From: an uncultured bacterium
Lineage (GTDB): Bacteria; Patescibacteriota; Andersenbacteria; UBA10190; CAIZMI01
Assembly: GCA_903934015.1 (NCBI GenBank)
Contig: CAIZMI010000022.1
Span: 1 to 62,323 of the forward strand
DNA length: 62,323 nt
Direction of reading: 5' to 3'
Positions 13,518 to 62,146 of the stretch are shown here, piece after piece. The translations under genes and the position numbers were made by a program. The notes under the pieces are model-generated. The model saw nothing but the letters and a program-made list of their open reading frames with translations, had not been told where the DNA came from and ran no database searches. Each line of letters starts with the position of its first letter. Position 1 is the first letter of the stretch.

Positions 13518-13533
13518 TTTATTATTAACAAGT

Positions 13534-44433: not shown

Positions 44434-44475
44434 AGTAGTCACCAATTTATCCAATTCTACATATATTTTTAATTA

Positions 44476-45528: not shown

Positions 45529-45532
45529 TTAG

Positions 45533-45891: not shown

Positions 45892-45910
45892 GTGTAGAGA
45901 TAAAACAACT

Positions 45911-47368: not shown

Positions 47369-47527
47369 GAGATATTTGGATGGTATAAGTTATTGGGATA
47401 ATTTTCAACAGGAGATAGTGTCTAATATGAAAAAGTCTCCTTAAGTAGTAAGCCGTCCGGATCCCTTTTCTTCTGCTTAATTCAATGGTACCTGAATTTA
47501 CAAGCTTACCAAGTGCCAATACCGCGT

Positions 47528-47605
47528 GTCATTCCTGCCCGCGAGCAGTAATCCGGGTGTTAGGGTCCGTCACCGGCTGAAGAAGTAACCGGATCCTGGT
47601 TAGTG
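47528..47605. repeat. Repeat mosaic M2 + M4
   Basis: gtcattcctgcccgcgagcagtaatcc (M2), then gttagggtccgtcaccggctgaagaagtaaccggatcctggttagtg (M4). Confidence 0.7.
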
Positions 47606-47618
47606 TAAACATGGAATT

Positions 47619-47709
47619 TTCACGGTTATGAGTGAAAAAACGTGAAAAAGTGTGTAAAAATCACTATTATTCACGCTTAACTTGACAAAACCGTGAAATA
47701 ATGTATGAT
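47619..47709 (+). promoter_or_regulatory. Fic promoter (TTGACA-16 nt-TATGAT) preceded and overlapped by five TTCACG/CGTGAA half-sites
   Basis: -35 at 47682-47687 and -10 at 47704-47709. Motif copies: ttcacgg 47619, gtgaaaa 47632, cgtgaaa 47641, ttcacgc 47670, cgtgaaa 47692. Confidence 0.55.
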
Positions 47710-47715
47710 GCATGT

Positions 47716-48600
47716 ATGCCCAAAACATCAAAAATGTTCAATCAAATTAACGTATTACGCAAGAGGTATTTCGAAGCAATCACCGGTAAGGAATCCTTGT
47801 TAAGGTTAATTTCCGAAAGTGAAGTTGCCGAACAGGTATATAATTCCAATGCCATCGAAAACAGCACGCTTACCTTTGAAGAAACAGAAAAAATTCTTCT
47901 TCAAATTGACTTGGATAGATTTATCACGGAACGTGAAATTTTTGAGGCAAAAAATCTTGCTCGCGTAGTTTCGTATATAGACAAAAGAGCAAAGGAGTTA
48001 GAATTGAATGTTGAAGTAATTTTGTCGTTACATAAAATGCTTCTTTCGAATATCCGTGATGAGGTGGCGGGTCGTTTTAGGAAAGAAAAAGAGTTTGTGC
48101 GTGTTGGTAGTCATATTGCGCCTCGCTCGGAGGAAGTGATTGGTCGGCTTGAAAAAATGTTTACCGAATATCATTCTGCTAGCCATGAAAATATTATTAA
48201 GCGTATCGCAAAACTGCATCTTGAATTTGAATATACACACCCGTTTATTGATGGAAATGGCAGGATCGGGCGCGTAATTAATAACTTCTTATTAACGCGC
48301 GAAGGATTTGTTCCGATTAACATTAAATTTATTGATCGGAATAAATACTATGACGCTTTTAGCGAGTATGATGAAAAAGGCGCGACGGGAATAATGGAAG
48401 AAATTGTGGGAAAAGCACTAACCAATAGTTACCACAAACGCTTAGCGTATTTAGAGAGTAAGAACATTACCACTCTTTCTGATTTTGCGAAAAATAATAA
48501 AATTTCGCACTCCAACTTGATCAATAAAGCCAACCGGCAAACCATAGAGGCGTTCTTGGAAAAAGGTATTTGGAAAATCGGAGAAGACACAACAGTTTAA
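47716..48600 (+). CDS. Fic-family protein (class II, N-terminal inhibitory helix)
   Basis: Fic motif HPFIDGNGRIGR and inhibitory motif SNAIEN ([ST]xxxE[GN]). The track start 47701 lies inside the -10 box, so ATG 47716 (possibly leaderless) or 47734 is more likely. Confidence 0.85.
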   Translation: MPKTSKMFNQINVLRKRYFEAITGKESLLRLISESEVAEQVYNSNAIENSTLTFEETEKILLQIDLDRFITEREIFEAKNLARVVSYIDKRAKELELNVEVILSLHKMLLSNIRDEVAGRFRKEKEFVRVGSHIAPRSEEVIGRLEKMFTEYHSASHENIIKRIAKLHLEFEYTHPFIDGNGRIGRVINNFLLTREGFVPINIKFIDRNKYYDAFSEYDEKGATGIMEEIVGKALTNSYHKRLAYLESKNITTLSDFAKNNKISHSNLINKANRQTIEAFLEKGIWKIGEDTTV

Positions 48601-48615
48601 AATAATCAGTCGTCT

Positions 48616-48775
48616 GTCATTCCTGCCCGCGAGCAGGAATCCGCCGTCGAATTGCGCCGTCTCCCTTCTTTCGACAAATGGCGCGGCGGATGCCCCGAGA
48701 ACATCCTGTGAATGTTCGAGAGGGTGCCAGCGCCGGCACATCAGTGCCGTGGGTACGAAGAGGGGTTCCGTCGTC
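48616..48775. repeat. Repeat mosaic M2 + M3 (+ truncated M1 junction)
   Basis: gtcattcctgcccgcgagcaggaatcc, then an M3 copy. Its internal hairpin carries two compensatory base-pair changes relative to the 45.5-kb copy. Confidence 0.75.
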
Positions 48776-49022
48776 GTACTTTTCTTTTCTCGTAACTATC
48801 CTTATATCTTCCAACGTTCCTTCATCTTCGCCACCAGCGGTTCCGCAATCTTTTTACTTTCTTCAAAATTCAATCGTTCAAACTTATCCAACTTCCGTTG
48901 TAATTCGTTTGGTAATCCCTTATTATCCGCCCAACTTTTTAAGGCTTGTTGTAATTTTGCGTCGGCAAAGAAGGCGATCGCATCCGCGTCCCTAGGGCTT
49001 GGTAATTAATAAACGTCTCATC

Positions 49023-49583
49023 TTATGCCCAATCCATCTCCAAATACAACTGCTTCTCAATCAAAAATCTTTCAACGTATGTTGAATACGCTTCAAGATT
49101 TTGTTCAATCAAAGACAGTCGTCTTTGAAGCGTATTGAACATAATCTTGAAACGTTTATTAATTACCAAGCCCTTAATAATTTTATTTTCCAAACTGTCG
49201 CTTTCTTCCTTAAGAATGTTTATTAAAGCTTCATATTGATCTTCATCCAGATCCAAAGACTTCAGAAATTTCTCACTAAACTCAAAAGCCATTTTGCCGT
49301 GATTGGCGCGCAAAGTATCTTCATCCGCTTTCGACGCTTTTCCGATATCGTGCAAAAGCGCGCCAACAGAAACCACTTCCAAATCCGCGTCGGGGAAGTG
49401 GGTGGCCAGATGTAGGGCAAAACTGCACACCACAACACTGTGGTGGTACATAATTTCCCAGTCGTTAAAACTAAAAGCCGGGTTATCTTGAAAAGACTGC
49501 TTGAGAAATTTTTCCGCCGCCTCAGTATTGTCCATAGGGATATGGTAGCGTAACTGTTGCGCAAAGCGAATGGGGTCCAACAT
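49023..49583 (-). CDS. HD-domain phosphohydrolase (186 aa)
   Basis: H...HD signature (MYHHSVVVCSFALHLA ... GALLHDIGKA). Confidence 0.8.
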   Translation of the reverse strand: MLDPIRFAQQLRYHIPMDNTEAAEKFLKQSFQDNPAFSFNDWEIMYHHSVVVCSFALHLATHFPDADLEVVSVGALLHDIGKASKADEDTLRANHGKMAFEFSEKFLKSLDLDEDQYEALINILKEESDSLENKIIKGLVINKRFKIMFNTLQRRLSLIEQNLEAYSTYVERFLIEKQLYLEMDWA

Positions 49584-49585
49584 CG

Positions 49586-49765
49586 TCCGTCTTTGCGAGC
49601 CCGCCGATGTAGCGGATGAAGCAAGCCTCGTGTCGTCGTTTTCCCTCCCTTTGTAAGGGAGGGATAAAGGGTGGGTTTAGTCGTAGCGTGTCATTCCTGC
49701 CCGCGAGCAGGAATCCGTGTATTAGGGTCCGTCACTGGCTGAAGACGTAACCGGACCCTGGTTGG
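49586..49765. repeat. Repeat mosaic M5 + M1 + M2 + M4
   Basis: gtctttgcgagc...gcggatgaagcaagcc (M5), ccctccctttgtaagggaggg (M1), gtcattcctgcccgcgagcaggaatcc (M2), agggtccgtcactggctgaagacgtaaccggaccct (M4). Confidence 0.75.
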
Positions 49766-50009: not shown

Positions 50010-50132
50010 GCCCCGCCTCCTTCCCTTATTCAAGAGAAGGCGAGGATGGGTTACGTAATCATCATTCTTTGCGAGGCGTTTCAGCGTCGAAGTAATCCCC
50101 TAGGTCATTCCTTTGTGCTAGTGAATAGGCAC
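50010..50132. repeat. Degenerate repeat mosaic M1 + M5 + M2-like
   Basis: ccgcctccttcccttattcaagagaaggcgaggatgggtt, then cattctttgcgaggcgtttcagcgtcgaagtaatcc, then gtcattcctttgtgctagtgaatagg. Confidence 0.55.
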
Positions 50133-50194
50133 CTCTGTAATGTCGCAATATAATTGCCCAATTAACCAATTTGGGCGTATATTGAGCCAAGATT

Positions 50195-52030
50195 ATGCAA
50201 AAAATTATTGGAAAAGAAAAGTCGTTGAGTGATCTTCTGTCTAATAAGAAGTACACGATTCATTATTATCAACGTGAGTATCGTTGGGGTAAAAAACAGA
50301 TTGAAGAACTAATCGATGATTTGACCGGTGAATTTTATGATTCTTTTGATATAGAAAATTCACGCGATGAAGTTGAACGATATGGTCATTATTATTTGGG
50401 TTCGATTGTTTTTAGTAGTGGTGAAAACCAAGCAGCCATTATTGATGGGCAACAAAGGCTCACTTCTTTAACACTATTGTTAATATATCTAAATAATCTT
50501 CAAAAAAACAAAGTTGCAGAAAACAAAGTTGCGATTGATCATCTTGTATTTTCTGATAGACATGGCGTGCGATCATTCAATATACACGTTGATGAAAGGG
50601 AAAAATGTTTAAATGCTTTATATACAGACAATATTGATGGTTTTGATACAAGCAACAATGTTCCAGAAAGTGTAAAAAACATATTTGAAAGGTATAAAGA
50701 TATTGCTGAAATATTTCCAGAGGACCTTAAAGATAGAGCCTTACCGTTTTTTATCGATTGGCTAATTTACAATGTCGATTTGGTTGAGATTTCCGCATAT
50801 ACCGAACAAGATGCTCATAAAATTTTTGTTTCTATGAATGATCGTGGGTTGAGCCTAACTCCAACGGAAATGTTAAAAGGGTTCTTGCTTTCTGAAATTA
50901 AATCAGATAAAAACAGAAGTGAAGCGAATGAAATATGGAAAAATCAAATCATGGAGCTTTCTACTATCGGGCCGAAAGAGGATGATGATTTTTTCAAAAA
51001 TTGGTTAAGAGCACAATACGCAAATTCTATTCGTGAAACAAAAAAAGGCGCCGTTAATGAAGATTTTGATATTATAGGAACAACTTTTCACAAGTGGGTC
51101 AGGGAGAATTCTGAGGAAATGGGCCTAGAAAACACTGAAGCCTATGAAAAATTCGTGATGATATATTTACCAAAATATGCGAGGGTTTATAAAACCCTTA
51201 AAAAATATTCCATGGAGTTTTCTTCTGACTATGAGTGTGTATTTTTCAATGCTGATAGAAATTTTACGTTACAATTTCAAGTGATTCTCTCGGCTGTTGA
51301 CCCAGAAGATAATGATGAAATCACTAAGAAAAAGATTCAAATAGTCAGCAGGTATGTTGATCAATATATTGCTCGTCGTAGTTTCAATTTCAAGATGCTC
51401 GGATACAACACGATAAAAAATGCGATGTTTACCATTTCAAAGAAAATACGTAGAAAATCAGTCGAGGAGCTGAAAGAGACTTTGCAAAAAGAGTTACAGA
51501 ATATGGATTTTGGTTTGGACGCAATTGACGATTTTTATTTAAGTCAATTTACAATAAAAAATATGCGCCATGTGTTGGCTAGGATGACTTATTATATCGA
51601 AAATGGGAGTGGTTTAAATACAAAATTCGATGATTATGTGAATCGAGAAATCAGAAATCCGTACGATATCGAGCATATTATGGCTGATCATTTTGAGCGA
51701 TTTGCAGATCAATTTCAAGAAGAAAAAGCTTTTCATGAGGCTAGAAATAAATTTGGAGATTTGCTGATTTTGCCACAGGACAAAAATAGAAGTTTTAATG
51801 ACTCAAAATACGATGAAAAATTACCAATGTATTTTGGTGAGAATTTGCTTGCTAAATCTCTAAATGGAAAATGCTATCAGAATAATCCACAATTTTTACG
51901 GTTTATTGAGGGCGAGAGACTTGAGTTTAAGGCGATTGATGATTTTACAAAAGGTAGTATCCAATCTCGGCAAGAGCTTTATAAGACAATTTGTAAAAAG
52001 ATTTGGGATGCTGAATTATTGAGTAGATAG
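50195..52030 (+). CDS. DUF262/DUF1524 (GmrSD-like) two-domain nuclease, first gene of the RM operon
   Basis: N-terminal YQREYRWGKKQIEELIDDL and IIDGQQRLTSL (ParB/DGQQR motif). The C-terminal region IEHIMADH...LILPQDKNRSFND looks like a His-Me/HNH finger. Confidence 0.8.
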   Translation: MQKIIGKEKSLSDLLSNKKYTIHYYQREYRWGKKQIEELIDDLTGEFYDSFDIENSRDEVERYGHYYLGSIVFSSGENQAAIIDGQQRLTSLTLLLIYLNNLQKNKVAENKVAIDHLVFSDRHGVRSFNIHVDEREKCLNALYTDNIDGFDTSNNVPESVKNIFERYKDIAEIFPEDLKDRALPFFIDWLIYNVDLVEISAYTEQDAHKIFVSMNDRGLSLTPTEMLKGFLLSEIKSDKNRSEANEIWKNQIMELSTIGPKEDDDFFKNWLRAQYANSIRETKKGAVNEDFDIIGTTFHKWVRENSEEMGLENTEAYEKFVMIYLPKYARVYKTLKKYSMEFSSDYECVFFNADRNFTLQFQVILSAVDPEDNDEITKKKIQIVSRYVDQYIARRSFNFKMLGYNTIKNAMFTISKKIRRKSVEELKETLQKELQNMDFGLDAIDDFYLSQFTIKNMRHVLARMTYYIENGSGLNTKFDDYVNREIRNPYDIEHIMADHFERFADQFQEEKAFHEARNKFGDLLILPQDKNRSFNDSKYDEKLPMYFGENLLAKSLNGKCYQNNPQFLRFIEGERLEFKAIDDFTKGSIQSRQELYKTICKKIWDAELLSR

Positions 52031-52032
52031 AT

Positions 52033-54588
52033 ATGTCAAATTCCAAGGAAGCAAAAGCACGGATAAAGATCAATAAAATGCTCGAAGATTCTGGCTGGCG
52101 TTTTGAGGACGATAAGAACGGCAGAGGCAACATTCAACTTGAGCCGGGGGTAAAATATGCCGAACTTGGTGATGATTTTGAAAATGAAACTCACGGTTTT
52201 ATTGATTTTCTTTTGCTTGACAAAGACGGACGCGCGCTCGTCGTGGTGGAAGCTAAAAGGGAAGCCGTTGATCCACTATCTGCCAAAGAACAAGCTCGCA
52301 ATTATGCTCGCAATGTCGGTGCCCGTTTCGTGATCCTCTCAAACGGCAATATCCATTATTTTTGGGATACCAAACACGGAAATCCAGACACTATTTCACG
52401 TTTTCCAACACAGGATTCCATTACACAATACGAAAAATATACGCCGAATCCTGCCGAGCTAGTGCAAACAGTTGTCGATGAAAATTATATTGTTTCGACA
52501 CAGATTCCAACCTTTGCGACGGATCCCGCTTTTCTGGACAAAACAACTCGTGTGGAGTTTTTAAAAACCAATAAACTTAAACAACTTCGTCCGTATCAAG
52601 TGCAAGCCATCAAGGCCCTTCAGGCATCAGCGCAGAGTGGAAATCAGAGATTTTTGTTTGAAATGGCAACGGGAACTGGCAAAACCCTTATTTCCGCGGC
52701 GGTTATCAAACTTTTTCTTAAGTCAGGTAACGCGCGTCGAGTTCTTTTCTTGGTTGACCGTCTTGAACTTGAAGATCAGGCGAAAAAAGCGTTCGTTCAC
52801 TACCTTGGTAAAGATTATCGCTGTGTTGTTTATAAAGAAAACAAAGATTCTTGGGCAAATGCCAGCATTGTTGTTTCTACAATCCAAACTTTTCTTGCCG
52901 GTGATCGTTATAAAAAAGAATTTTCCCCGACTGATTTTGAACTGATAATATCCGACGAAGCACATCGCTCCATCGGCGGTAACAGTCGCGCGGTATTTGA
53001 ATATTTTGTCGGCTACAAGCTTGGTCTAACCGCCACGCCAAAAAATTATCTAAGAGGTTTTGATGCCGAAGGTGCGGATAGCCAAAGGGAATATGAACGA
53101 CGACTATTGATTGATACCTATAAAACATTTGGTTGTGAAGCCGGAACTCCCACCTTTTCATATGATCTCGAAAAAGGCGCGGATGAGGGTTATCTCATCA
53201 AGCCAACTATTGTTGGCGCACGCACCAACATCACCACGGAACTTCTTTCGGAAGAAGGTTACGCCGTTCATACACTCACTGAAAATGGCGAAACAGTTGA
53301 CGAAATTTTCAACGAACGTCATTACGAGCGCAAAATATTCAACAAAGAAACTAACATCGCTATGTGCAAGGCGCTCATTGATAATGGTCTTTATGATCCG
53401 GTTGCCAAAAAACTAGGCGTAGATCTTTTTGGAAAAACAATTGTCTTTGCAGTATCGCAAAATCACGCCGCCGGACTGACAAACATTTTAAACAAAATCG
53501 CTTATGAAAAATGGCCGGAACAATACAGCGAATCAAATTTCGCTATGCAAGTTTCTTCACAAGTTGCGGACGCCCAGCAGATGACTATTAATTTCGCCAA
53601 TAATCGTCTTGGTGGACAAACAAGCCGTCCCGAAGGTTATGACACCAGTAAAACTCGCGTTGCCGTAACTGTGGGGATGATGACGACCGGCTATGATTGC
53701 CAAGATTTACTCAATATCGCTCTGATGCGTCCGGTTTTTTCTCCAACTGATTTTGTACAAATCAAAGGACGAGGTACTAGGAAATGGCAGTTTGAATACA
53801 ATGATTATCAAAACGATCCAATTACAGAATCAAAAGAAAAATTCAAGTTTTTCGATTTCTTCGCGACTTGTGATTATTTTGAAAATGAATTTGATTATGA
53901 TGAAAAAATTGAAATTCCTTTTAATTATTACCCACCAACAACTGGCCCTGATGATGCTGACGTGAGCGCAGATGGTACAGGGGTTGTGGGTGATGAACCT
54001 ATTGGGGCAAAAGGCCCGATTGATCTTGCGACGGGTGACGCATTGGCCACGCTTTCCGAAACCCCTGAGGGTGTGATTATGCGCATTGACCGCGAGGGCT
54101 TCAAGCGTGCCGTGGAAGAAGATGTGCTTGGCAACGAAAAACTCAAAAATATGTGGGAAAACGGTGACACCGAAGAAGCCGAAAATTTTGCTCAAAAGCA
54201 GATTTTTGATAAGCCAAAATATTTTCTCAATCTCGATAGAATCAAACGAATTTTCGGTGTTGATCGTCGTATTACTGTTAAAGAGTTTTTGCAGGTGGCA
54301 TTTGGTGAGAAAGAATCTTTTGAAACGAAAGACGAGCTTCTAGAGTCAGAATGGGTGAAGTTTATGGAGGTGAATCCGGTGGACCAAGTGCACTACGAAC
54401 CCGTAAAAATGTTTTTCAAGGCATATGTGACAGACGAAAAAGTTCGCGAAATTGTCGCGAGTCGTCAAATCGGTCGTTTTAGTACCGAGTCATCGTTCAA
54501 TTCTGATGAATACACCAAGCTTAATGGATTTAAAACAGCTGTCCCACAATATATTCATGATTATGCTTATCATTTAACAAACTTATAA
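52033..54588 (+). CDS. hsdR: Type I restriction enzyme R subunit (HsdR), EcoEI-like
   Basis: N-terminal PD-(D/E)xK region (IDFLLLDKDGRALVVVEAKRE), Walker A FEMATGTGKT, DEAH box IISDEAHRS, motif VI QIKGRGTR. The start lies 2 nt after the upstream stop. Confidence 0.85.
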   Translation: MSNSKEAKARIKINKMLEDSGWRFEDDKNGRGNIQLEPGVKYAELGDDFENETHGFIDFLLLDKDGRALVVVEAKREAVDPLSAKEQARNYARNVGARFVILSNGNIHYFWDTKHGNPDTISRFPTQDSITQYEKYTPNPAELVQTVVDENYIVSTQIPTFATDPAFLDKTTRVEFLKTNKLKQLRPYQVQAIKALQASAQSGNQRFLFEMATGTGKTLISAAVIKLFLKSGNARRVLFLVDRLELEDQAKKAFVHYLGKDYRCVVYKENKDSWANASIVVSTIQTFLAGDRYKKEFSPTDFELIISDEAHRSIGGNSRAVFEYFVGYKLGLTATPKNYLRGFDAEGADSQREYERRLLIDTYKTFGCEAGTPTFSYDLEKGADEGYLIKPTIVGARTNITTELLSEEGYAVHTLTENGETVDEIFNERHYERKIFNKETNIAMCKALIDNGLYDPVAKKLGVDLFGKTIVFAVSQNHAAGLTNILNKIAYEKWPEQYSESNFAMQVSSQVADAQQMTINFANNRLGGQTSRPEGYDTSKTRVAVTVGMMTTGYDCQDLLNIALMRPVFSPTDFVQIKGRGTRKWQFEYNDYQNDPITESKEKFKFFDFFATCDYFENEFDYDEKIEIPFNYYPPTTGPDDADVSADGTGVVGDEPIGAKGPIDLATGDALATLSETPEGVIMRIDREGFKRAVEEDVLGNEKLKNMWENGDTEEAENFAQKQIFDKPKYFLNLDRIKRIFGVDRRITVKEFLQVAFGEKESFETKDELLESEWVKFMEVNPVDQVHYEPVKMFFKAYVTDEKVREIVASRQIGRFSTESSFNSDEYTKLNGFKTAVPQYIHDYAYHLTNL

Positions 54589-54591
54589 ATT

Positions 54592-56997
54592 ATGAACACC
54601 GACACAAAAAGACACATCGATTCTGCGCGCCAAGTTTTGGTTGGAGTCGTGCCAAATCCTACTTCACAAATCGATCAGATCACTAACGCGCTCATCTATA
54701 AATTTATGGATGATATGGATCAGGCTTCTATCAAACAAGGTGGCGAGCCAGCATTTTTTGTGGGCGACTTGGAGCTGTTCGCGTGGACGCGCTTGATGGA
54801 TTCGCGAATAGGTAATCAAGAACGGATGAATCTCTATGGCGAGGCACTGATCAAATTTTCCCAAGCCAAACAATTACCGGAACTTTTTCGTGGTATTTTC
54901 AAATCGGCGTTTTTGCCATATCGCTCACCTGAAACGCTTGGGCTTTTCCTTAAAGAAATTGATTACTTTGACTACTCGCACCCTGAAGAACTTGGCAATG
55001 CTTACGAATACTTGCTTTCCATAATGTCTTCCCAAGGCGATGCCGGACAATTCCGCACACCGCGCCACATTATTGATTTTATTGTGGATGTAGTGAACCC
55101 GACCAAAGACGACAAAGTGTTGGATCCCGCTTGTGGCACTGGTGGCTTCTTGGTTAGCTCATACAAACATATTTTAGAGCAACACGACAGCAAAGACGAC
55201 CCAGAGAAAAAAGAAAAGCCACTTACCCCCGACGATCGCAAGAAATTGATGGCGAATTTTGAAGGGTACGACATAGACCCAACCATGGTGCGCATCGCAC
55301 AGGTCAATATGTATCTGCACCAATTCAAAAATCCAAAAATTTTTCAATACGATTCACTTTCCAGTGAAGAACGATGGAATGACAGGTTTGATGTCATTCT
55401 TGCCAATCCGCCGTTTATGTCGCCAAAAGGCGGAATCAAACCGCATAGCAAATTTGGTATTCAGTCTAGTCGTAGCGAAGTGCTTTTTGTTGATTACATA
55501 ATTAACCATCTGCGACCAAGAGGCCGCGCCGGAATAATCGTACCGGAAGGGATTATTTTTCAGTCAGGCACTGCTTATAAACAACTACGCAAGAATCTCG
55601 TGGAAGAAGGCCTTTATGCCGTGGCCAGTTTGCCGTCGGGGGTATTCGCGCCGTATAGCGGAGTAAAAACCAGCATTTTGTTTTTCAACAACGAGCTGGC
55701 AAAAACAAGCCGAGAAATTTTGTTTGTAAAAATAGAGCAGGATGGTTTTGATCTTGGTGCACAAAGAAGGGTCAGTATAAAAAATGATTTGCCCCAAGCG
55801 CTTACTGTTTTGAATAAATGGAATACTGGTGAAAAAGTTGAAAACAAGCTAGCGGTTTATGTAGAAAAATCAAAAATTGGCGAGAATGGCGAATATAATC
55901 TTTCTGTAGAACGTTATCGAATAGCGACCGATTACACTAATGCCAAGTGGTCAATGGTTAAGTTAGAGGATGTTTGTGATGTCTATCAACCGAAAACAAT
56001 CACATCAAACGAAATTAAAGAATCTGGTAAATATAAAGTTTTTGGAGCGAATGGTGTGATTGGATATTTTGATGAATATAATCACGAAGAGTCAGAAGTT
56101 GCCGTGACTTGTCGGGGTGCTACTTGCGGAACTATTAATTTTACGGAGCCGAGATCTTGGATCACGGGAAATGCAATGGTTATTAAACCAAAGGAAAATA
56201 ATCTCAATAAAAGATACTTGTTTTTTCTTTTGCGCAGTACAGACTTGTCCTCTGTTATTACGGGAGCGGCGCAACCACAAATAACCGGCAGTGCATTAAA
56301 GCCATTTTTAATCCCTCTCCCACCTCTCGAAATTCAAGGGCAAATAGTGGCGGAGCTGGACGGCTACACCAAAATTATCGAAGGAGCCAAACAAATAGTT
56401 CGAAACTGGAAACCCAAAATCGACATTGACCCGGCGTGGGAGAAGGTTAAATTGGGGGAGGTTTGTGAAATTTATGGTGGCGGTACACCCTCTCGAACAG
56501 AAGAAAAATATTGGGGCGGAGCTATCCCATGGCTTTCGGCAAGATATTTTTCAGATGATCACAGAATTAAAGGTTCAGAAATGATTACAGAATTAGGTTT
56601 GAAAAATAGCTCAAGTAAAATTGCACCTAAGGGTTCAACTATCCTTATTACTCGAGTATCTGTTGGAAAATTTGCGATAGCTGATCAAGATTATGCAATA
56701 AATCAAGATTTAACTGCATTAGAATCTAAGGGTGGAAATCTTGATGCAAAATATTTGTGGCTAGTTTCTGAAATAGTTGCAAAAAAAATTAAAGATAATG
56801 CTGTTGGCGTAGGTGTAACTGGTGTAACGAGGGACTTTGTAGTAAATCAAGAAATCCCTCTTCCATCCCACGCCGTTCAAAAGCAAATTGTGGAAAAAAT
56901 CGAAGCCGAGCGTGCCCACGTCGAATCAGCCAATAAACTGATCGCAATCTATGAACAAAAAACAAAAGAAGTTATCAGTAAGTTATGGCAAGACTAA
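54592..56997 (+). CDS. Fused Type I methyltransferase-specificity polypeptide (HsdM N-terminal half + two-TRD HsdS C-terminal half)
   Basis: Motif I LDPACGTGGFL and motif IV ILANPPFMSP. From about residue 440 there are two target-recognition-like domains, separated by LEIQGQIVAELDG... and ended by a QKQIVEKIEAERA... conserved helix. Confidence 0.8.
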   Translation: MNTDTKRHIDSARQVLVGVVPNPTSQIDQITNALIYKFMDDMDQASIKQGGEPAFFVGDLELFAWTRLMDSRIGNQERMNLYGEALIKFSQAKQLPELFRGIFKSAFLPYRSPETLGLFLKEIDYFDYSHPEELGNAYEYLLSIMSSQGDAGQFRTPRHIIDFIVDVVNPTKDDKVLDPACGTGGFLVSSYKHILEQHDSKDDPEKKEKPLTPDDRKKLMANFEGYDIDPTMVRIAQVNMYLHQFKNPKIFQYDSLSSEERWNDRFDVILANPPFMSPKGGIKPHSKFGIQSSRSEVLFVDYIINHLRPRGRAGIIVPEGIIFQSGTAYKQLRKNLVEEGLYAVASLPSGVFAPYSGVKTSILFFNNELAKTSREILFVKIEQDGFDLGAQRRVSIKNDLPQALTVLNKWNTGEKVENKLAVYVEKSKIGENGEYNLSVERYRIATDYTNAKWSMVKLEDVCDVYQPKTITSNEIKESGKYKVFGANGVIGYFDEYNHEESEVAVTCRGATCGTINFTEPRSWITGNAMVIKPKENNLNKRYLFFLLRSTDLSSVITGAAQPQITGSALKPFLIPLPPLEIQGQIVAELDGYTKIIEGAKQIVRNWKPKIDIDPAWEKVKLGEVCEIYGGGTPSRTEEKYWGGAIPWLSARYFSDDHRIKGSEMITELGLKNSSSKIAPKGSTILITRVSVGKFAIADQDYAINQDLTALESKGGNLDAKYLWLVSEIVAKKIKDNAVGVGVTGVTRDFVVNQEIPLPSHAVQKQIVEKIEAERAHVESANKLIAIYEQKTKEVISKLWQD

Positions 56998-56998
56998 A

Positions 56999-57550
56999 AT
57001 GAACGAAGCTAAAGAAAAATTGTATAATTGGGCTGGAATTTTATGGAAAATAAATAATGTTTATAATGGAAATATTGATTTTGAAGCGCTGTGCCCAGTA
57101 GGTGGATGCCGCTGTAAATTAAGGGAGGGAGATGTCTCCCTTAATCAGCTGCAGCACACATACTATTGTTTTAAATGTGGTTTTAAAATTATTTTGAATT
57201 CCACGATTGAGGAAAAGGCAAGTGATTTAATAGATGTTTTAGAATCTGAAAAAAATATTGACGCTGAAATTATTAACGTTGACGGTGAGCTCATTAAGGT
57301 TCAACGTGAAGAAATTAAGGATTCTGATTATTGGGTTGATGTGAAGATCTCAAAAAATAAGAAAGGTGAGGCACAGTTGATGGTTTTGGCTGGTAGTAAA
57401 AAAGAAAAAGATAAAACGCAGTTATTTATTGATCCCAAAAAAGAACGATTAGCATTTGATCAAAACAATGATCACCCCGCCAAGGTGTTTTCCAAAGTCA
57501 CAGCTATGTTTAAAAATTCAAAATCAGTAATTAAATCTCATATTAAATAA
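56999..57550 (+). CDS. Hypothetical Zn-ribbon protein (183 aa from ATG 56999)
   Basis: CPVGGCRC...YYCFKCGF gives four Cys in a ribbon arrangement. The ATG lies 1 nt after the hsdMS stop; the ORF track's 56951 start would overlap hsdMS. Confidence 0.7.
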   Translation: MNEAKEKLYNWAGILWKINNVYNGNIDFEALCPVGGCRCKLREGDVSLNQLQHTYYCFKCGFKIILNSTIEEKASDLIDVLESEKNIDAEIINVDGELIKVQREEIKDSDYWVDVKISKNKKGEAQLMVLAGSKKEKDKTQLFIDPKKERLAFDQNNDHPAKVFSKVTAMFKNSKSVIKSHIK

Positions 57551-57567
57551 TATTATAATGTTGTATT

Positions 57568-58272
57568 ATGACGAGCTTACCTTTTTCTTTAAATATATTT
57601 AAGCAAATTGAGTATTTTCAGGTTATTGAACGTTTAGATGAGCAATTTGAACAGATGAAAAAAGATTGGATTGATGGGGGATATTTGAATAATGGGTTAA
57701 GTGATGAAGTAAATATCAATTATCCCACATGGGAAATTGAAAAGAAGATATTGCTTTGGACATCTAGACATCATAAACACTTAGGATCGCCACTTTCTTC
57801 TGGAAGTTTGAGTGATAAATTAAATGATCTACATATTTCACAAACAGAAATTGATTTTTCGTCAAGAAATGTAATTTTAAAAAATCTTGTTGTACGCGGA
57901 CTGGGAAATCCGGATGGCGATGGTGGTACTGTAATATCACAAGTTGGGTTAGAATATGGGCTACTTATTAGCCAGCTTTATGGATTAGAGAAGGAAAATT
58001 CTATTAAAGAAGGGGATGTCAAGTATCGTGATGAAATGCTTGTGAGAAATGAGTTTGTTTTTTTTGGGTATAAACTAATGTATTGTGTGGGGGTTCTTGT
58101 TATTATTTTATCGTTGCTTCTGTTAGGTGCTAGTGTGTTTGAAAAACTAAATATTTCTATTACAATTGTCCCTGTTCAATTTATTGCAACAATTAAAATA
58201 ATTTTAGGAATAATTTCTTTTTTACCCGTTAGTTTATTTGTTACTGGTTTGTATTTAATTAATAATAAATAA
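57568..58272 (+). CDS. Hypothetical protein with soluble N-domain of about 170 aa and two C-terminal TM helices
   Basis: TM segments LMYCVGVLVIILSLLLLGASVF and ATIKIILGIISFLPVSLFVTGLYLI. Last gene of the operon. Confidence 0.7.
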   Translation: MTSLPFSLNIFKQIEYFQVIERLDEQFEQMKKDWIDGGYLNNGLSDEVNINYPTWEIEKKILLWTSRHHKHLGSPLSSGSLSDKLNDLHISQTEIDFSSRNVILKNLVVRGLGNPDGDGGTVISQVGLEYGLLISQLYGLEKENSIKEGDVKYRDEMLVRNEFVFFGYKLMYCVGVLVIILSLLLLGASVFEKLNISITIVPVQFIATIKIILGIISFLPVSLFVTGLYLINNK

Positions 58273-58273
58273 A

Positions 58274-58372
58274 ATGTCAGGTATCTTTATTAATCTTCAA
58301 AAAGCGATTCGGTTTGCCACCGCTGTTCATGCCGGCCAAACACGGAAAGGCAAGCTGACTTTTGAATATTGT
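58274..58372 (+). pseudogene. 5' remnant of an HD (RelA/SpoT-type) hydrolase paralog
   Basis: ATG...cttcaaaaagcgattcggtttgccaccgctgttcatgccggccaaacacggaaaggcaag matches the first ~75 nt of the intact gene at 58827 with five point differences in the 60-nt core I aligned by eye. It then diverges and stops after 32 codons. Confidence 0.7.
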
Positions 58373-58402
58373 TAATCATAAAAGATTGGAATATACAAAT
58401 TT

Positions 58403-58428
58403 AAAAAACACCGAAACGAGTTCGGTGT
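58403..58428 (-). terminator. Rho-independent terminator of the 93-aa gene
   Basis: Minus-strand reading: acaccgaa-ctcgt-ttcggtgt followed by tttttt. Confidence 0.7.
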
Positions 58429-58458
58429 GGGAAGTAATTCGTCCTTGCCTTGCCGAGG

Positions 58459-58740
58459 CTAGTGTGGTGCGACGGCTTCGAAGTAGCGATTAACGGCGTC
58501 GAGTAGTGCGGTGGCAATGGTGACCAGTCCGTGTTGTTTAGCGTTGCCTGCCACGTTGCAGAAATCTCGGATAGCGTAAAGCAGGACGTAATACTTAATT
58601 TCGGGATCGCGCAAAAATATGATCCACGCTTCACTAACCTTCTCTTTCTGCACACTGATCAAACTTGCGTCAGTTGCTTCACGGGGCAACACGAGAGCCC
58701 TGATCATGCTTTCAATGTGTTGGATTGGCTTTTTTGCCAC
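58459..58740 (-). CDS. Hypothetical 93-aa protein, autonomous transcription unit
   Basis: GTG start with AAGGAA 8 nt upstream. A TTGACA-17-CATAAT promoter (rc of 58818-58823 and 58795-58800) and its own terminator. More GC-rich than its surroundings. Confidence 0.6.
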   Translation of the reverse strand: MAKKPIQHIESMIRALVLPREATDASLISVQKEKVSEAWIIFLRDPEIKYYVLLYAIRDFCNVAGNAKQHGLVTIATALLDAVNRYFEAVAPH

Positions 58741-58826
58741 GACGATTTCCTTTCATTCGTAAAGATCAATAACCGGTAAAAACGGTAACTGTACATTATG
58801 CTCGTTTATTGTGTTATTGTCAATAG

Positions 58827-59399
58827 ATGGGAATAATCATTCTCCAAAAAGCGATTCGGTTTGCCACTGCTGTTCATGTCGGCCAAACGCGGAAAGGGAA
58901 GTCGGAGGTTCCATATATTACTCATCCACTTGCTGTTGCTCTGATTTTGGCTCGGGTTGGGGCTTCGGAGGATGTTATTACGGCGGGGATCTTGCACGAC
59001 ACGGTGGAGGACAGTCATGGAAAAGTTGCTGTTGCTGATATTTCACGGGAATTTGGTGACGCGGTGGCTAAACTGGTGGATTACGTTACGGAAAAAGATC
59101 ATGATTTGCTTTCTTGGGAAGAACGAAAAAGTACGGCGCGGGCGCATATTGCAGACATGTCGCATGATGCTCTGCTTTTGAAATCTGCCGATATTCTTTA
59201 TAACCTGCGAGATTTGCTCGCAGATTTGGAAGAAACGGGCGAAGAAGTTTGGTTGCGTTTTAATGCGCCAAAAGAAAAACAGATTGAGCATCATATGAAA
59301 CTGGCCGTGGTACTTTCGAAGGTGTGGCCGGAAAATCCTTTGCTTTCGGAGGTGCAGACGGCGGTGGGATGGTTAAAATCCCTCCCAACCTCCCTTTGA
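58827..59399 (+). CDS. RelA/SpoT-type HD-domain hydrolase (small alarmone hydrolase-like, 190 aa)
   Basis: HVGQTRKGK..PYITHPLAVA and AGILHDTVEDS motifs. The C-terminal codons and the stop run into an M1 repeat. Confidence 0.8.
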   Translation: MGIIILQKAIRFATAVHVGQTRKGKSEVPYITHPLAVALILARVGASEDVITAGILHDTVEDSHGKVAVADISREFGDAVAKLVDYVTEKDHDLLSWEERKSTARAHIADMSHDALLLKSADILYNLRDLLADLEETGEEVWLRFNAPKEKQIEHHMKLAVVLSKVWPENPLLSEVQTAVGWLKSLPTSL

Positions 59400-59425
59400 A
59401 TAAAGGGAGGAGGCGACGCGGCGGT
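59375..59425. repeat. M1 repeat module (reverse orientation) overlapping the 3' end of the HD gene
   Basis: aaaatccctcccaacctccctttgaataaagggaggaggcgacgcgg. Confidence 0.65.
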
Positions 59426-59497
59426 GTGGCTGAAATATTTAATTTTCATCAAGTAAACACGTCAAAAAATGGCTACGGAAAGGGAATAAATGTTTGC

Positions 59498-59532
59498 TTG
59501 ACGTTACTAGTATAACCAAATATACTAGTAAC
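59498..59532 (+). promoter_or_regulatory. Promoter (TTGACG-17 nt-TATACT) with an embedded perfect 12-bp inverted repeat operator
   Basis: -35 at 59498-59503 and -10 at 59521-59526. gttactagtata (59503-59514) and tatactagtaac (59521-59532) are exact reverse complements. Confidence 0.6.
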
Positions 59533-59559
59533 ATAGATTACTAATATATTTCAATATAT

Positions 59560-60993
59560 ATGAAACAGGAACTTATCCAATACGTTCAGAAGCAGATAAA
59601 CACCACATCCGACCGACTAAATAAATATACACATGATATAAATGGGAAAAGACTTCCCGCCCGCTACATGTATGTAAAGTTGCGGAAATATGTTGATGAT
59701 TTTTTGGGGAAGAATTTTGATAATCGATTGATAATCATTCCCGGTCTTCGCGGTGTTGGAAAGACAACTTTAATGGCGCAAGTGTGCAGTGAGGTCATGG
59801 AAAACAACAAAAATGTAAAAGTATTGTTTTTATCAATAGATGAGGCTAAAAATTTGTTTAGCGCGGGCATTTCGGAAATTGTGCAAGCGTATGAAGAAAT
59901 TTTAGGCGAAAACGTCGAAAGCTTAACGCAGGATGTAATAATATTTTTTGATGAAGTGCAGGCCGATCCTAATTGGGCGAAGACATTAAAAACGCTCCAT
60001 GATAAAACAAAACGAGTTTTCTTTTGTTGTACCGGTTCCTCGGCGTTGATTTTGCAAACAACTCCCGATATTGCACGAGGAAGGGCAATTTTTGAAAGAA
60101 TGACGCCATTGTGTTTTGCGGAATTTGTAATGATTGGCAGTGGAATTCATCCTATTAAAAATCTCAAGAACAGTATTCGAGAGGCGATATATTTTTCATC
60201 TGATGCCAAAGAAGTGTTTGAAAAATTAAAGAAATTGGAAAGTACGGTAAATGGGTATTGGAGCACGGTGAACAGAAAAGACGTGGATAAGTTTTTAACG
60301 TTCGGTTCGTTGCCATTTACTCTGCGCTTACCGAATGAATCAGCAATTTACGACGCAATCTCCCTGCTTTTAGATGGTGTTATCAAGAAGGATTTGCCAC
60401 TTTTGGGAAGCTTTGACGCAAAAACATTAACGCAAGTAAAAAGGCTCCTCTTTATTATTGCTGAAAATGATATAACCAGCTTAAATAGTTTAGATGAAAT
60501 ATTGGGTATTGATCGACTGACAATTCTTGGTTTGCTGGATGCGCTTGAAAAAGCGGAATTATTGATAAAGGTGTCGGCCTATGGCTCAAATATGTCTGTG
60601 GCAAAAAAACCGGCAAAATATCTGTTTATGTCATCAGCGATTCGGATGTCTTTTTTTGCTGTTTCTGGAAATGAGGGGACGCTTATGACGCGGAAGGGGA
60701 AATTATTGGAGGATTCTGTTGGATCGCATTTGTATCGTGAATTTATTTTGCGTGGTGGCGGGGCGTTTAGATATGACAGTTCACAAAAAGGCGCGGATTT
60801 TATTTTGCAAATTGCCAACAAAAAGCAAATTCTGATTGAAGTCGGTTTAGGTAAAAAAGACAGACGGCAGATTATGAATAGTATGAAAAGAATAAAATCT
60901 GATTATGGAATTGTGTTTTCGAGTAACCCTTTGGTAATCGATCAAGAAAATAAAATCGTGAATGTGCCATTGGATTTTTATTTCTTGATGTAA
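59560..60993 (+). CDS. AAA+ ATPase (AAA_14/DUF4143-like architecture)
   Basis: Walker A PGLRGVGKTTL and Walker B IIFFDEVQ, 477 aa. Confidence 0.8.
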   Translation: MKQELIQYVQKQINTTSDRLNKYTHDINGKRLPARYMYVKLRKYVDDFLGKNFDNRLIIIPGLRGVGKTTLMAQVCSEVMENNKNVKVLFLSIDEAKNLFSAGISEIVQAYEEILGENVESLTQDVIIFFDEVQADPNWAKTLKTLHDKTKRVFFCCTGSSALILQTTPDIARGRAIFERMTPLCFAEFVMIGSGIHPIKNLKNSIREAIYFSSDAKEVFEKLKKLESTVNGYWSTVNRKDVDKFLTFGSLPFTLRLPNESAIYDAISLLLDGVIKKDLPLLGSFDAKTLTQVKRLLFIIAENDITSLNSLDEILGIDRLTILGLLDALEKAELLIKVSAYGSNMSVAKKPAKYLFMSSAIRMSFFAVSGNEGTLMTRKGKLLEDSVGSHLYREFILRGGGAFRYDSSQKGADFILQIANKKQILIEVGLGKKDRRQIMNSMKRIKSDYGIVFSSNPLVIDQENKIVNVPLDFYFLM

Positions 60994-61044
60994 TTGTTAC
61001 TGATTCTGTTTTGATGAAGCGGAGTGAGAAGTATATTTATGGAC

Positions 61045-61190
61045 GAGGCCTTACGGTTTAACGCCACCGAAGGAATAACAGATTGCGCACTGCAACAAAC
61101 CTGTTGAGGGATTTACGACGGTTTGGCCGGAGAATCCTCTGCTCAGGGAGGTGCGCGACGCGGTGGGACGACTAAATCCCCCTTAGTCCC
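61045..61190 (+). pseudogene. 3' remnant (frameshifted) of the HD hydrolase paralog
   Basis: ttacggtttaacgcc...cagattg...gtttggccggagaatcctctgctcagggaggtgcgcgacgcggtggga parallels the intact gene's LRFNAP..QIE..VWPENPLLSEVQTAVGW region. An in-frame stop and a frame change are present. Confidence 0.6.
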
Positions 61191-61398
61191 CCTTTGGATA
61201 AAGGGGGAAGGCGACGACGAAACCCATCCCCGCCCAGCACGACACTGATGTGTCGGCGCAGGCACCCTCTCAAACACTCACCGAGTGTTTGAGAGGCATC
61301 CGCCGCGCCACTTACAAAGGGAAGGAGAAGACTCGACGAAATATTTTTTGATGCCAATCAGGGTCCGGCCCTGGCTTCGGCCAGTGACGGACCCTACT
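61172..61398. repeat. Repeat mosaic M1(rc) + M3(rc) + M4(rc)
   Basis: 61172-61228 is the rc of the 45791-45856 module. 61222-61330 is the rc of the 45533-45640 module, joined here without the insert. M4 at 61359-61398 carries a ctggc-ttcg-gccag inner hairpin. Confidence 0.8.
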
Positions 61399-61513
61399 GT
61401 GCGACGCGGATTTTTGCTTTGCTCATTTTTTAGTGGGTGGGTGCTGAGACCGGAAGGACGCAATAATAAAAAACCGCGACCTTTTTAGGAGGCGGTGGGG
61501 GCCGTTGTTCCTG

Positions 61514-61669
61514 CTACTTTGGCTTTTCCGTTGTGGAAGAATCGTCTTTTTTTTCACCAGGTTCTTCTTCCTTGTTGAGCTCGGCGTCGGGGGTTGGTGG
61601 AGTTTCACCTGGGCGCGCGTGTCCCGGGTGAGAACGATCGTATTTGATCCCGCTTTTTGGTCTGGCCAC
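61514..61669 (-). CDS. Possible 51-aa Pro/Lys/Glu-rich protein
   Basis: GTG start with AAGGAG 8 nt upstream (rc of 61678-61683). Low-complexity charged sequence (…PGETPPTPDAELNKEEEPGEKKDDSSTTEKPK). Too short for the ORF track. Confidence 0.35.
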   Translation of the reverse strand: MARPKSGIKYDRSHPGHARPGETPPTPDAELNKEEEPGEKKDDSSTTEKPK

Positions 61670-61831
61670 CTTGAATACTCCTTATGGCTCTAGAACAACG
61701 AAACGAAAGGAACTGAAATTACTGTCGTCCTACTTTACAATCCAATGATAAAACCGTCAATAAGAGGGTGTGAGTGAAAATCGTTACTATGGCGTATTTT
61801 GTTTTATATTTTATGGTGCTAAAATATAATT

Positions 61832-62146
61832 ATGATTGTGGATATGTTGTTACGGGTTTTGGGGGAGAATCCTGCGGGGTATCCGAGTTTTTCAGATAAA
61901 ATGGCAGGAATAACAGCTGTGTTATTAGGGTATTCAACAATTTATTTTTCATATCTATTTGCAATAATCCCATGGGTTTGGCTTTTGTGGCAAAAAAAGA
62001 AAAAAAGAACGATAACAAAAAAAAAGATTATTGTTGTGGTTATCGTTAGTATTTTATTGTTTTGGCTAGGTTATAATTTGCCATGGTGGATTATTGAAAT
62101 AATGGGTGGAATTACCGTTCGGGGTATTTATGGCGGTCAAATATAG
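61832..62146 (+). CDS. Small membrane protein (104 aa, about 3 TM)
   Basis: Hydrophobic segments ITAVLLGYSTIYFSYLFAIIPWVWLLW and IIVVVIVSILLFWLGY. The start is uncertain because a TATAAT box abuts the ATG at 61832. Confidence 0.5.
   Translation: MIVDMLLRVLGENPAGYPSFSDKMAGITAVLLGYSTIYFSYLFAIIPWVWLLWQKKKKRTITKKKIIVVVIVSILLFWLGYNLPWWIIEIMGGITVRGIYGGQI

Follow-up and report, generated by a model that had tools for sequence, protein, structure and literature searches.

In EcoprrI-PrrC and RloC, a Type Ic hsd locus houses an anticodon nuclease that acts as its guard. The Panacea/SocA antitoxin domain and the WYL/BrxR-type regulators are conserved defence-associated partners that occur with variable effectors. 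To our knowledge, bacteria of the CPR largely lack CRISPR, and few immune functions are known from them. GmrSD-like genes embedded in Type I restriction-modification (R-M) loci have already been described (bioRxiv 10.1101/2024.01.29.577857; PMC11411939), and HEC-06 and BrxU function as single genes (10.1101/2024.01.29.577857). An engineered fusion of the HsdM and HsdS subunits of EcoKI, termed 'Type IMS', needed extra free HsdM in vitro (PMC3510504).

The five-gene block

The locus described here is part of a 62,323-nt contig of an uncultured bacterium (the window, i.e. the whole stretch of DNA that was analysed). The source genome, probably of the Patescibacteria/CPR, is small (1.34 Mb) and 98% complete, and the block is chromosomal. 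Five open reading frames, all on the + strand, are packed within positions 50195-58272, with intergenic gaps of 2, 3, 1 and 17 nt. The features are as follows.

Promoter-like site TAGGCA-17-TATAAT, 50126-50154, + strand, upstream of g1; consensus match only
g1, 50195-52030, + strand, 611 aa; predicted single-chain GmrSD-type (HEC-06-like) Type IV enzyme, low-GC accessory cassette
g2, 52033-54588, + strand, 851 aa; HsdR with PD-(D/E)xK nuclease and SF2 helicase motor, inherited core
g3, 54592-56997, + strand, 801 aa; HsdM-HsdS fusion ('Type IMS' layout) that includes two TRDs; M part inherited, TRDs swapped
g4, 56999-57550, + strand, 183 aa; Zn-ribbon and novel beta-rich domain, uncharacterised R-M/defence-associated family
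g5, 57568-58272, + strand, 234 aa; long N-terminal helix, winged-helix-like domain and two C-terminal TM helices, uncharacterised R-M-embedded family
Boundary to the right of the swapped g4-g5 cassette, 58271-58350, no strand; homology to a same-genus genome resumes (blastn, 85% over 80 nt)

A first-pass annotation of this DNA had named the products a GmrSD-like nuclease, HsdR, a fused HsdMS, a Zn-ribbon protein and a 2-TM protein. Pfam, PADLOC, motifs and hydropathy agree with these identities, and the tight packing that it described is real. PADLOC matched g1 to HEC-06 and g2 to REase_I; g4 and g5 had no match there. In the explanation that we favour, with a probability of roughly two-thirds, the five genes are a mosaic cluster of defence genes on the chromosome of a lake bacterium with a small genome, and not a dedicated five-component system.

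Because of the gene spacing, one operon, with a single transcript for the five genes and one promoter, is plausible. Promoter-like sites across the region are in total no more numerous than in shuffled sequence. No convincing + strand terminator was found inside the five-gene block, and it contains no copy of the palindromic repeat modules with which the intergenic gaps on either side are filled.

The Type I core and its fused subunit

The g2 sequence matches HSDR_N_2 + ResIII (2.9e-40) in Pfam, REase_I (1.4e-58) in PADLOC and the R subunit of PDB 3h1t (6.8e-28). Its catalytic and helicase motifs are intact (D..VEAK, TGTGKT, DEAH and QIKGRGTR). The g3 sequence displays N6_Mtase (Pfam, 1.4e-54) and two Methylase_S stretches, matches both M and S subunits in PDB and has intact DPACGTGGF and NPPF motifs. 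The two genes together encode the parts of a Type I R-M system, an HsdR nuclease with an SF2 motor in g2 and an N6-adenine methyltransferase with a two-TRD HsdS in g3. The locus departs from the R2M2S1 plan of separate M and S subunits in that M and S form one 801-aa open reading frame.

The fusion in g3 is in keeping with the variant that PMC3510504 calls 'Type IMS'. As in the EcoKI construct, HsdM and a two-TRD HsdS are joined in one polypeptide and HsdR is separate, but g3 is a natural fusion whereas that of EcoKI was engineered. The HsdM-HsdS fusion is conserved in several lineages (at least six loci), and no second hsdM was detected at E<=1e-20 in the 98%-complete genome. A conserved fusion with no free HsdM found therefore poses a question of stoichiometry.

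Two narrower assignments were considered and rejected. The g2 product is related to, but is not a member of, the Type IB (EcoAI/FtnUII) HsdR equivalog (NF046051, 213 bits vs a cut-off of 550). Membership in MADS was suggested by NCBIfam/PADLOC matches to MAD2/MAD5 equivalogs, but the scores are far under the cut-offs (NF047738, 121.5 vs 720; NF047740, 37 vs 400) and reflect generic MTase/S similarity only.

The GmrSD-like gene

The g1 product has an N-terminal DUF262 domain (PF03235 GmrSD_N, 9.4e-34, residues 11-231) and a C-terminal DUF1524 His-Me finger (PF07510 GmrSD_C, 5.7e-9, 36.4 bits vs a cut-off of 23). The top PADLOC model is HEC-06 (7e-31, residues 3-547). The motifs are intact: QR (YQREY, aa 25-29), DGQQR (84-88), FxxMN (FVSMN, 211-215) and DIEHI (491-495). 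The last carries the (D/E)H motif and aligns in type with EHICP of HEC-06 and DHIYP of BrxU. Both the DUF262 motifs and the DUF1524 (D/E)H that mark the GmrSD family are thus present. Judged by its sequence, g1 is a GmrSD/HEC-06-like Type IV enzyme, predicted to cut modified DNA.

This gene is not a regular companion of the core. It has no counterpart in any of 60 relatives, the same genus included, and the R-M core is present without a GmrSD gene at loci L007 (HsdR 85% aa), L010, L036, L012 and L077.

As in the published pairings of GmrSD with methylation-based systems, the DUF262/DUF1524 gene has the same orientation as its neighbours and lies flush against them, and the two enzymes would target modified and unmodified DNA in a complementary manner. 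The present locus differs in that the GmrSD gene is upstream of hsdR and not between hsd genes, and in that the host is an uncultured small-genome bacterium. It also differs from TgvAB, a two-protein system, since g1 is a single chain. The proposal that predicted modification-dependent (GmrSD) and modification-blocked (Type I) activities are encoded side by side is upheld, but the layered Type IV and Type I defence is not a new arrangement, having been published already (10.1101/2024.01.29.577857; PMC11411939). The locus contributes no more to that documented idea than one example, from an uncultured lineage with a small genome.

Mosaic origin

The block is of mosaic origin. In a genome of the same genus, G001, hsdR and hsdMS are kept at the same chromosomal site without g1, g4 and g5. 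The hsdR genes of the two genomes are 89% identical in amino acids and 84% in nucleotides. The M part of hsdMS is likewise close (87% aa, 80% nt), whereas the TRD part is only 43% identical in amino acids. Nucleotide homology to G001 (blastn) extends over 52042-56999, is patchy over the TRDs after 55760, and resumes at 58271-58350 and again at 61816-62314. The comparison illustrates 'guilt by embedding' cleanly in a natural setting: the R-M core is conserved, and the cassettes on either side of it are swapped exactly.

Base composition differs along the same lines. GC3 is 0.29 in g1, 0.29 in g4 and 0.22 in g5, vs 0.37-0.44 in the core and 0.38-0.42 in housekeeping genes; within g3 it is 0.30 in the TRD part vs 0.44 in the M part. 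Both g1 and g4 were found in just one of 61 related genomes.

The five-gene composite proposed in the first-pass annotation does not stand as a unit. The HsdR/HsdMS core occurs without the DUF262 gene in G001 and at the five loci named above, and g4 and g5 are missing from G001, where other genes are in place. G001 has an accessory slot between R and MS, which holds a SLFN_AlbA_2/HATPase_c_4 gene, and another after MS with an unrelated 207-aa gene. The latter was tried as a member of the HEPN-like family that follows g4 elsewhere and proved unrelated to it.

In relatives of this locus, HEPN-like or AAA_13 genes occupy the g4-g5 slot. The likeness to EcoprrI-PrrC and RloC lies in an Abi-type gene placed within a Type I operon or added on to it; the window differs in having neither a PrrC-like ABC ATPase nor a HEPN domain, the slot being filled by g4 and a TM/wHTH protein. 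A guard of the PrrC/RloC type was rejected, as g4 and g5 display no AAA_13 or HEPN match; such genes are found only in related loci (L034, L077).

At the right-hand boundary, segment 58271-58350 is a duplicate derived from the 5' part of the HD gene at 58836-58901 and belongs to repeat family D4.

The g4 family

An alignment of homologues favours the ATG at 56999 as the start of g4 over an alternative at 56951. The protein carries the Zn-ribbon motif CPVGGCRC..CFKC, in which C32, C37, C57 and C60 are invariant, and a conserved C-terminal motif block. The family has 118 close homologues and ~200 clusters (209 50%-cluster representatives), and is found mostly in CPR/Patescibacteria, with ~55-60% identity across phyla. 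There is no curated family for g4 or g5 in Pfam, NCBIfam, PADLOC or PHROGs; the sole sequence match for either in these libraries was GH32_C (5e-4), under its cut-off.

The AF2 model of g4 (pLDDT 80.7) gave nothing at E<0.001 with Foldseek against PDB and BFVD; the top fold matches are at E 0.26 in PDB and E 0.003 in BFVD, the latter to an unnamed protein. Resemblances to Pur-alpha, to a 'restriction alleviation protein' and to an intron-endonuclease were too weak to use. A PD-(D/E)xK or His-Me nuclease, which the residues D95...D114-x-K116 and DHP might suggest, is unsupported; no nuclease fold was found, and D114, K116 and H159 are not conserved in the divergent homologues P0114, P0118 and P0287.

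Gene neighbourhoods were compared over ~31 distinct loci in which the upstream neighbour of g4 could be interpreted. In ~12 of these, a Type I M, S or MS gene immediately precedes g4, or g4 is inside a Type I operon. Other genes that precede it are Type IIG, Type ISP, ResIII helicase and GmrSD genes, and the gaps to adjoining genes are usually <20 nt. The genes downstream are effector-like: the HEPN-like family (four loci), HEPN_Cthe2314, Shedu SduA_C (two loci), AAA_13/23, PDDEXK_1 and Trypsin_2, with TIR as the second gene downstream. In places that lack a nearby R-M gene, g4 likewise stands ahead of Shedu, HEPN, TIR and SIR2-context genes. At one locus (L077), g4 is fused to HEPN_AbiU2 directly after an HsdMS gene, but this fusion, situated close to an A-run and known from a single assembly, could be an assembly error. 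Solitary copies adjoin the housekeeping genes pheT, typA and dnaE; g4 can thus do without both an R-M system and a downstream partner.

In the g4 tree, members linked to Type I genes are scattered and copies with the same partner group together. The window copy pairs with that of L078, which also has a g5 partner (support 99/95), and L007, L010 and L036, with the HEPN-like partner, form another group. The g4-g5 pairing was directly seen in two loci only, the window and L078, with two further putative cases, and may reflect a single event.

With Panacea/SocA and WYL/BrxR, g4 shares the property of one conserved small protein beside many unrelated effector or defence genes. It differs from them in having no sequence or fold similarity and in its position, which is usually after a big gene and before the effector, not at the operon head.

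No homologues of g4 or g5 were found in IMG/VR, INPHARED or PLSDB, collections of phages, plasmids and viral contigs, and a phage, plasmid or anti-restriction origin was rejected on this basis. A mobile element is also a poor description of g4, as only two loci have a serine recombinase close by and the upstream gaps of 2-10 nt leave no room for terminal repeats.

The g5 family

The g5 protein has hydrophobic C-terminal segments at residues ~165-190 and 200-231 (hydropathy). Its AF2 model (pLDDT 85.3, pTM 0.82) yielded weak PadR/MarR/DtxR wHTH matches in PDB with Foldseek (best E 0.047) and nothing at E<0.001. The PadR and MarR matches point to no more than a wHTH, a weak similarity that would fit a regulator as well as an effector.

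The family is small (27 homologues). Strong matches (E <= 1e-40) occur in two of 401 genomes of the phylum, one being the window's own, and weak partial ones in four more. The contexts nevertheless recur. Gene g5 is inside Type III operons at two loci, in the orders mod-g5-res (L062) and HTH-g5-mod-res (L080); it directly follows a Type IIG gene in L065, is one gene after Type IIG in L079 and follows g4 in L078. L005 represents another context, where a 186-aa gene was tried as a g4 homologue and rejected (hmmsearch E 7).

Both g4 and g5 are thus strongly and repeatedly linked to R-M genes, which are of four types, and the two uncharacterised families are not random passengers. The association of the DUF262 gene and the two trailing genes with the core, as first proposed, is therefore upheld in part: the DUF262 gene is unlinked, since the core occurs elsewhere without it, and g4 and g5 are recurrent beside R-M genes and not randomly associated.

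Interpretation

The mosaic cluster can be pictured as three layers. The inherited 'Type IMS' enzyme, composed of HsdR and one HsdM/two-TRD-HsdS polypeptide, would methylate a bipartite site on host DNA and translocate along and cut unmethylated DNA. The g1 enzyme, stand-alone and single-chain, would have been acquired flush upstream of the core and would cut modified DNA that escapes it. The g4-g5 cassette would have been acquired flush downstream, in a slot held by other Abi-like genes in relatives, as a back-up module of the abortive-infection or guard type. In this module g4 may be a zinc-ribbon sensor or regulator that binds nucleic acid or the R-M complex, and g5 a membrane-acting effector. 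We infer co-transcription from one promoter, the independence of the three layers and all functions of g4 and g5.

A more specific proposal, tentative and possible rather than probable, is that g4 is the sensor/adaptor half of a modular two-gene immune cassette in which the effector can be exchanged (HEPN RNase, Shedu nuclease, protease, ATPase or g5). Such a cassette would dock preferentially behind R-M methyltransferase genes, perhaps guarding against anti-restriction, and g5 would represent a second, independent R-M-embedded membrane effector family. The conservation of g4 is unusually high for a phage sensor, which counts against a sensing role.

That the five genes form one integrated system, in which the GmrSD and Type I enzymes would assemble or signal together with the two small proteins and each would depend on the others, is suggested by the tiny gaps on one strand and by the freedom of the block from the repeat modules of the neighbouring intergenic gaps. 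It is nonetheless highly improbable, given the same-genus core without g1, g4 and g5, the five other loci without g1, the differences in GC3 among the parts, a g1 family known to act alone and the unrelated partners with which g4 and g5 each occur. Another interpretation sees in g4 and/or g5 R-M regulators or establishment factors of the restriction-alleviation or controller type, which would tune methylation against cleavage on entry into a new host. Both families lie flush against methyltransferase genes of R-M types I, IIG, ISP and III; g5 has a wHTH-like domain and in L080 follows a small HTH controller-like gene; and the high conservation of g4 is what one would expect if it bound a conserved target. 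In BFVD, the Zn-ribbon of g4 weakly resembles a phage 'restriction alleviation protein' (E 0.26, prob 0.92), which is a lead only. A regulatory role is rather unlikely, however, as g4 also precedes defence genes with no R-M gene nearby and adjoins housekeeping genes, the same core operates without g4 in G001 and many other relatives, and a membrane anchor would be unusual in an R-M controller.

A toxin-antitoxin-like addiction pair would explain why a small conserved gene is followed by a variable, toxic-looking one (HEPN, TM protein, nuclease or protease), as in antitoxin-toxin operons. Here g4-g5, or g4 alone as a promiscuous antitoxin-like or hitchhiking gene, would stabilise the island and have no direct anti-phage role; the orphan g4 copies and the clustering of copies by partner in the tree are in keeping with this. 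We consider it improbable. Neither protein is similar to known antitoxin or toxin families in the libraries searched, and the enrichment of both families beside R-M genes would be left unexplained, although toxin-antitoxin and Abi functions are not mutually exclusive. Should g4 and g5 act in defence or in R-M control, the short list of CPR immune functions would be extended.

Occurrence in lake water

The block is carried by four lake-water DNA runs, and no structural variants of it were seen in their contigs. When RNA runs were sought, DNA metagenomes alone turned up. Two of the runs cover it by shorter exact pieces. In each of the two deepest (X1 and X2), one 9717-nt contig (49686-59402) spans the block with no differences and at uniform depth.

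The five-gene block

Five tightly spaced genes lie on the same strand at 50195-58272, with intergenic gaps of 2, 3, 1 and 17 nt in order; ORF positions, gaps and domain matches bear out this much of the first-pass annotation. The genes make up a Type IMS restriction-modification (R-M) core, a stand-alone GmrSD-type gene and members of two R-M-linked accessory families.

50195-52030, + strand: g1, GmrSD-type, 611 aa; GmrSD_N and GmrSD_C (Pfam), top PADLOC models HEC-06
52033-54588, + strand: g2, HsdR, 851 aa; HSDR_N_2 and ResIII, PADLOC REase_I
54592-56997, + strand: g3, HsdMS, 801 aa; N6_Mtase and two Methylase_S domains in a single chain
56999-57550, + strand: g4, 183 aa; four-Cys ribbon
57568-58272, + strand: g5, 234 aa; two hydrophobic helices at the C-terminus

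The catalytic and binding motifs of g1, g2 and g3 are all intact. HsdR resembles EcoAI-type R subunits, though its score is well under the cut-off of that equivalog (NCBIfam). No curated family in Pfam, PADLOC or NCBIfam was matched by g4 or g5. The g4 ATG at 56999 matches the start position in all homologues of the alignment; an alternative ATG is possible upstream, at 56951. The block is carried by four lake-water DNA metagenome runs, and in the two deepest it lies on one 9.7-kb contig of uniform depth, with no variants within it.

One predicted transcript for all five genes is plausible. A promoter-like site is present at 50126-50154, upstream of g1, no convincing + strand terminator was found inside the block, and palindromic repeat modules fill every neighbouring intergenic gap while the block is free of them. 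Because the gene junctions display no obvious SD sequences, translational coupling can only be presumed.

Mosaic origin

Sequence comparison shows the block to be a mosaic, most decisively when it is set against G001, a genome of the same genus. Nucleotide homology to G001 starts at 52042, nine bases past the hsdR start at 52033, ends at 56999, immediately past the g3 stop codon, and picks up again at 58271-58350 and 61816-62314. Identity is 84% (nt) and 89% (aa) over hsdR, and 80% and 87% over the HsdM part of g3; over the g3 TRDs homology is patchy (43% aa). G001 lacks g1, g4 and g5. Its locus (L076 = G001:C24, reverse strand) has a 479-aa SLFN_AlbA_2 and HATPase_c_4 gene embedded between hsdR and hsdMS (12692-14131), and the slot after hsdMS (9425-10048) is occupied by an unrelated 207-aa protein with an R-x4-H (HEPN-like) motif and no family match.

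Gene distribution, GC3 and other loci agree. Both g1 and g4 are present in one of 61 related genomes; g5 has a strong match in 2 of the 401 genomes of the phylum, including the window's own, and a weak partial match in four more. GC3 is 0.29 in g1, 0.29 in g4, 0.22 in g5 and 0.30 in the TRDs, against 0.37 in hsdR, 0.44 in the M part and 0.38-0.42 in housekeeping genes. The same HsdR/HsdMS core occurs without any GmrSD gene at loci L007, L010, L036/L012 and L077 from other genomes or metagenomes; the L007 HsdR has 85% aa identity, and the genes upstream are housekeeping. Given these loci, G001, the distribution and GC3, the linkage that had been proposed is not conserved, either for the DUF262 gene (g1) or for the five-gene composite, of which G001 keeps only the core. 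The composite is a chance-assembled yet typical defence cluster, a variant of a known layout.

Relation to known systems

The earlier interpretation of layered Type IV and Type I defence is partly supported: the gene-level observation holds, and unit status and novelty do not. Published work describes GmrSD-like genes that sit within Type I R-M, BREX and Hma systems, and gives the reasoning that modified and unmodified DNA are attacked in a complementary way (bioRxiv 10.1101/2024.01.29.577857; PMC11411939). What remains of interest is the natural Type IMS core, along with g4 and g5, two uncharacterised R-M-associated families.

Type IMS denotes an HsdM-HsdS fusion engineered from EcoKI, with HsdR separate (PMC3510504). 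The window likewise has fused HsdM-HsdS and a separate HsdR, but here the fusion is natural and is found in at least six loci. The EcoKI fusion required additional free HsdM in vitro (PMC3510504); no second hsdM was detected at E<=1e-20 in the genome holding the window (1.34 Mb, 98% complete).

The g4 and g5 families

For g4 there are 118 close homologues, and clustering at 50% gives 209 representatives; almost all of these proteins stand alone and are 175-200 aa long. Patescibacteria/CPR MAGs supply nearly all of the closest homologues of g4, and likewise of g5; neither family has members in phage, plasmid or viral-contig collections. The Cys ribbon of g4 and a C-terminal block, DYW..K.S.N.K...QLM.LAGS....K.QLF......FDQNN.HP, are strongly conserved. 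An AF2 model (pLDDT 80.7) matched nothing significant in PDB or BFVD.

Neighbours were surveyed at 35 distinct loci (GTDB genomes and metagenomes) plus L077 and L078, with upstream genes interpretable in ~31. At ~12 of these ~31, g4 stands behind Type I HsdMS, HsdS or HsdM or within a Type I operon. Elsewhere the upstream gene is Type IIG, Type ISP, ResIII helicase, GmrSD_N, DUF3644, SIR2_2 or DUF87, two further loci have a divergent N6_N4 methyltransferase, and a few copies adjoin pheT, typA or dnaE. Gaps to neighbours are mostly <20 nt. On the downstream side, effector-like genes are common: an HEPN-like family (4 loci), HEPN_Cthe2314, Shedu SduA_C (2 loci), AAA_13/23, PDDEXK_1, Trypsin_2, TIR (second gene downstream), DUF3800 and NOV_C. 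L077 (330-7143) runs from HsdR through DUF3800 and fused HsdMS to a 380-aa ORF joining g4 to HEPN_AbiU2; an A7 run lies near the junction, and an assembly error is a possible source of this fusion.

Type I-linked members are scattered in the g4 tree, which means that the association arose either repeatedly or long ago, with later shuffling. Some groups form by partner, namely the window's g4 with L078 (g5 partner, 99/95) and L007 with L010 and L036 (HEPN-like partner); neighbours can also differ widely between very close g4 sequences. In Wolfebacteria (L001-L003, L009; 217-10573) the g4 homologue is last in a run of small genes that ends in a DUF87 (HerA/VirB4-like) ATPase; with a large serine recombinase next to it, the run may be an integrated element. 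Small GIY-YIG genes (84-86 aa) are found repeatedly close to g4 and g5 loci in a number of CPR genomes (L005, L008, L018, L020).

The g5 family has 27 homologues. In its AF2 model (pLDDT 85, pTM 0.82) a long helix at the N-terminus is followed by a winged-helix-like domain and two TM helices; all fold matches (PadR, MarR, DtxR) are weak. Without g4, g5 is found in Type III contexts, between mod and res (L062) or between a small HTH gene and mod-res (L080); with Type IIG enzymes, immediately behind (L065) or one gene further on (L079); near an N6_N4 methyltransferase (L005); and behind RhuM fragments (L063). L064 has no R-M gene near g5. The g4-g5 pair is seen in the window and L078, and probably occurs on two further short contigs, judged from matching lengths only.

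Proposed function

Transcription of all five genes would start at the promoter-like site ahead of g1. The core would methylate host DNA and cut unmodified DNA, and g1 would cut modified DNA that escapes the core. The likeliest role of the g4-g5 pair is as a back-up module, of either abortive-infection or guard type; g4 would be the sensor or regulator and g5 the membrane effector. Genomic context points this way: R-M linkage, effector-like partners, one fusion and partner-wise clustering. The high conservation of g4 and its solitary copies beside housekeeping genes argue against a partner-specific sensor. Its absence from G001 shows g4 to be swappable; given the fusion and the partner-wise clades, it may still be a partner of the HEPN gene. 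The g4-g5 pair may instead regulate R-M or alleviate restriction, or it may form a TA-like addiction pair, and both readings are real rivals to the back-up module.

Chromosomal setting and flanking DNA

The window is chromosomal, with secA, glyA, secD, rseP, proS and mreB upstream of the block. Its sole predicted tRNA (ARAGORN), a tRNA-Asn at 41202-41275 (-), has the anticodon ATT instead of the usual GTT and finds nothing at gathering score in Rfam. Fic-domain and HD-domain genes directly upstream of the block, at 47701-48600 and 49023-49583 (-), share its low-GC accessory region.

Families of short palindromic REP/MITE-like repeat modules, such as GTCATTCCTGCCCGCGAGCAGGAATCC (5 copies), occupy intergenic gaps on both flanks (44399-49765 and 58289-61396), and long inverted matches join 45.5-45.9 kb and 61.2-61.3 kb; none of either is inside the block. 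Relative to G001, 58351-61815 is an insertion that holds a 93-aa gene (-), a 190-aa HD/RelA-SpoT-like gene, a 477-aa AAA/DnaA-like ATPase gene and repeats. A 5' fragment of the HD gene is duplicated (58289-58354 and 58836-58901, 89% identity) and brackets the insertion.
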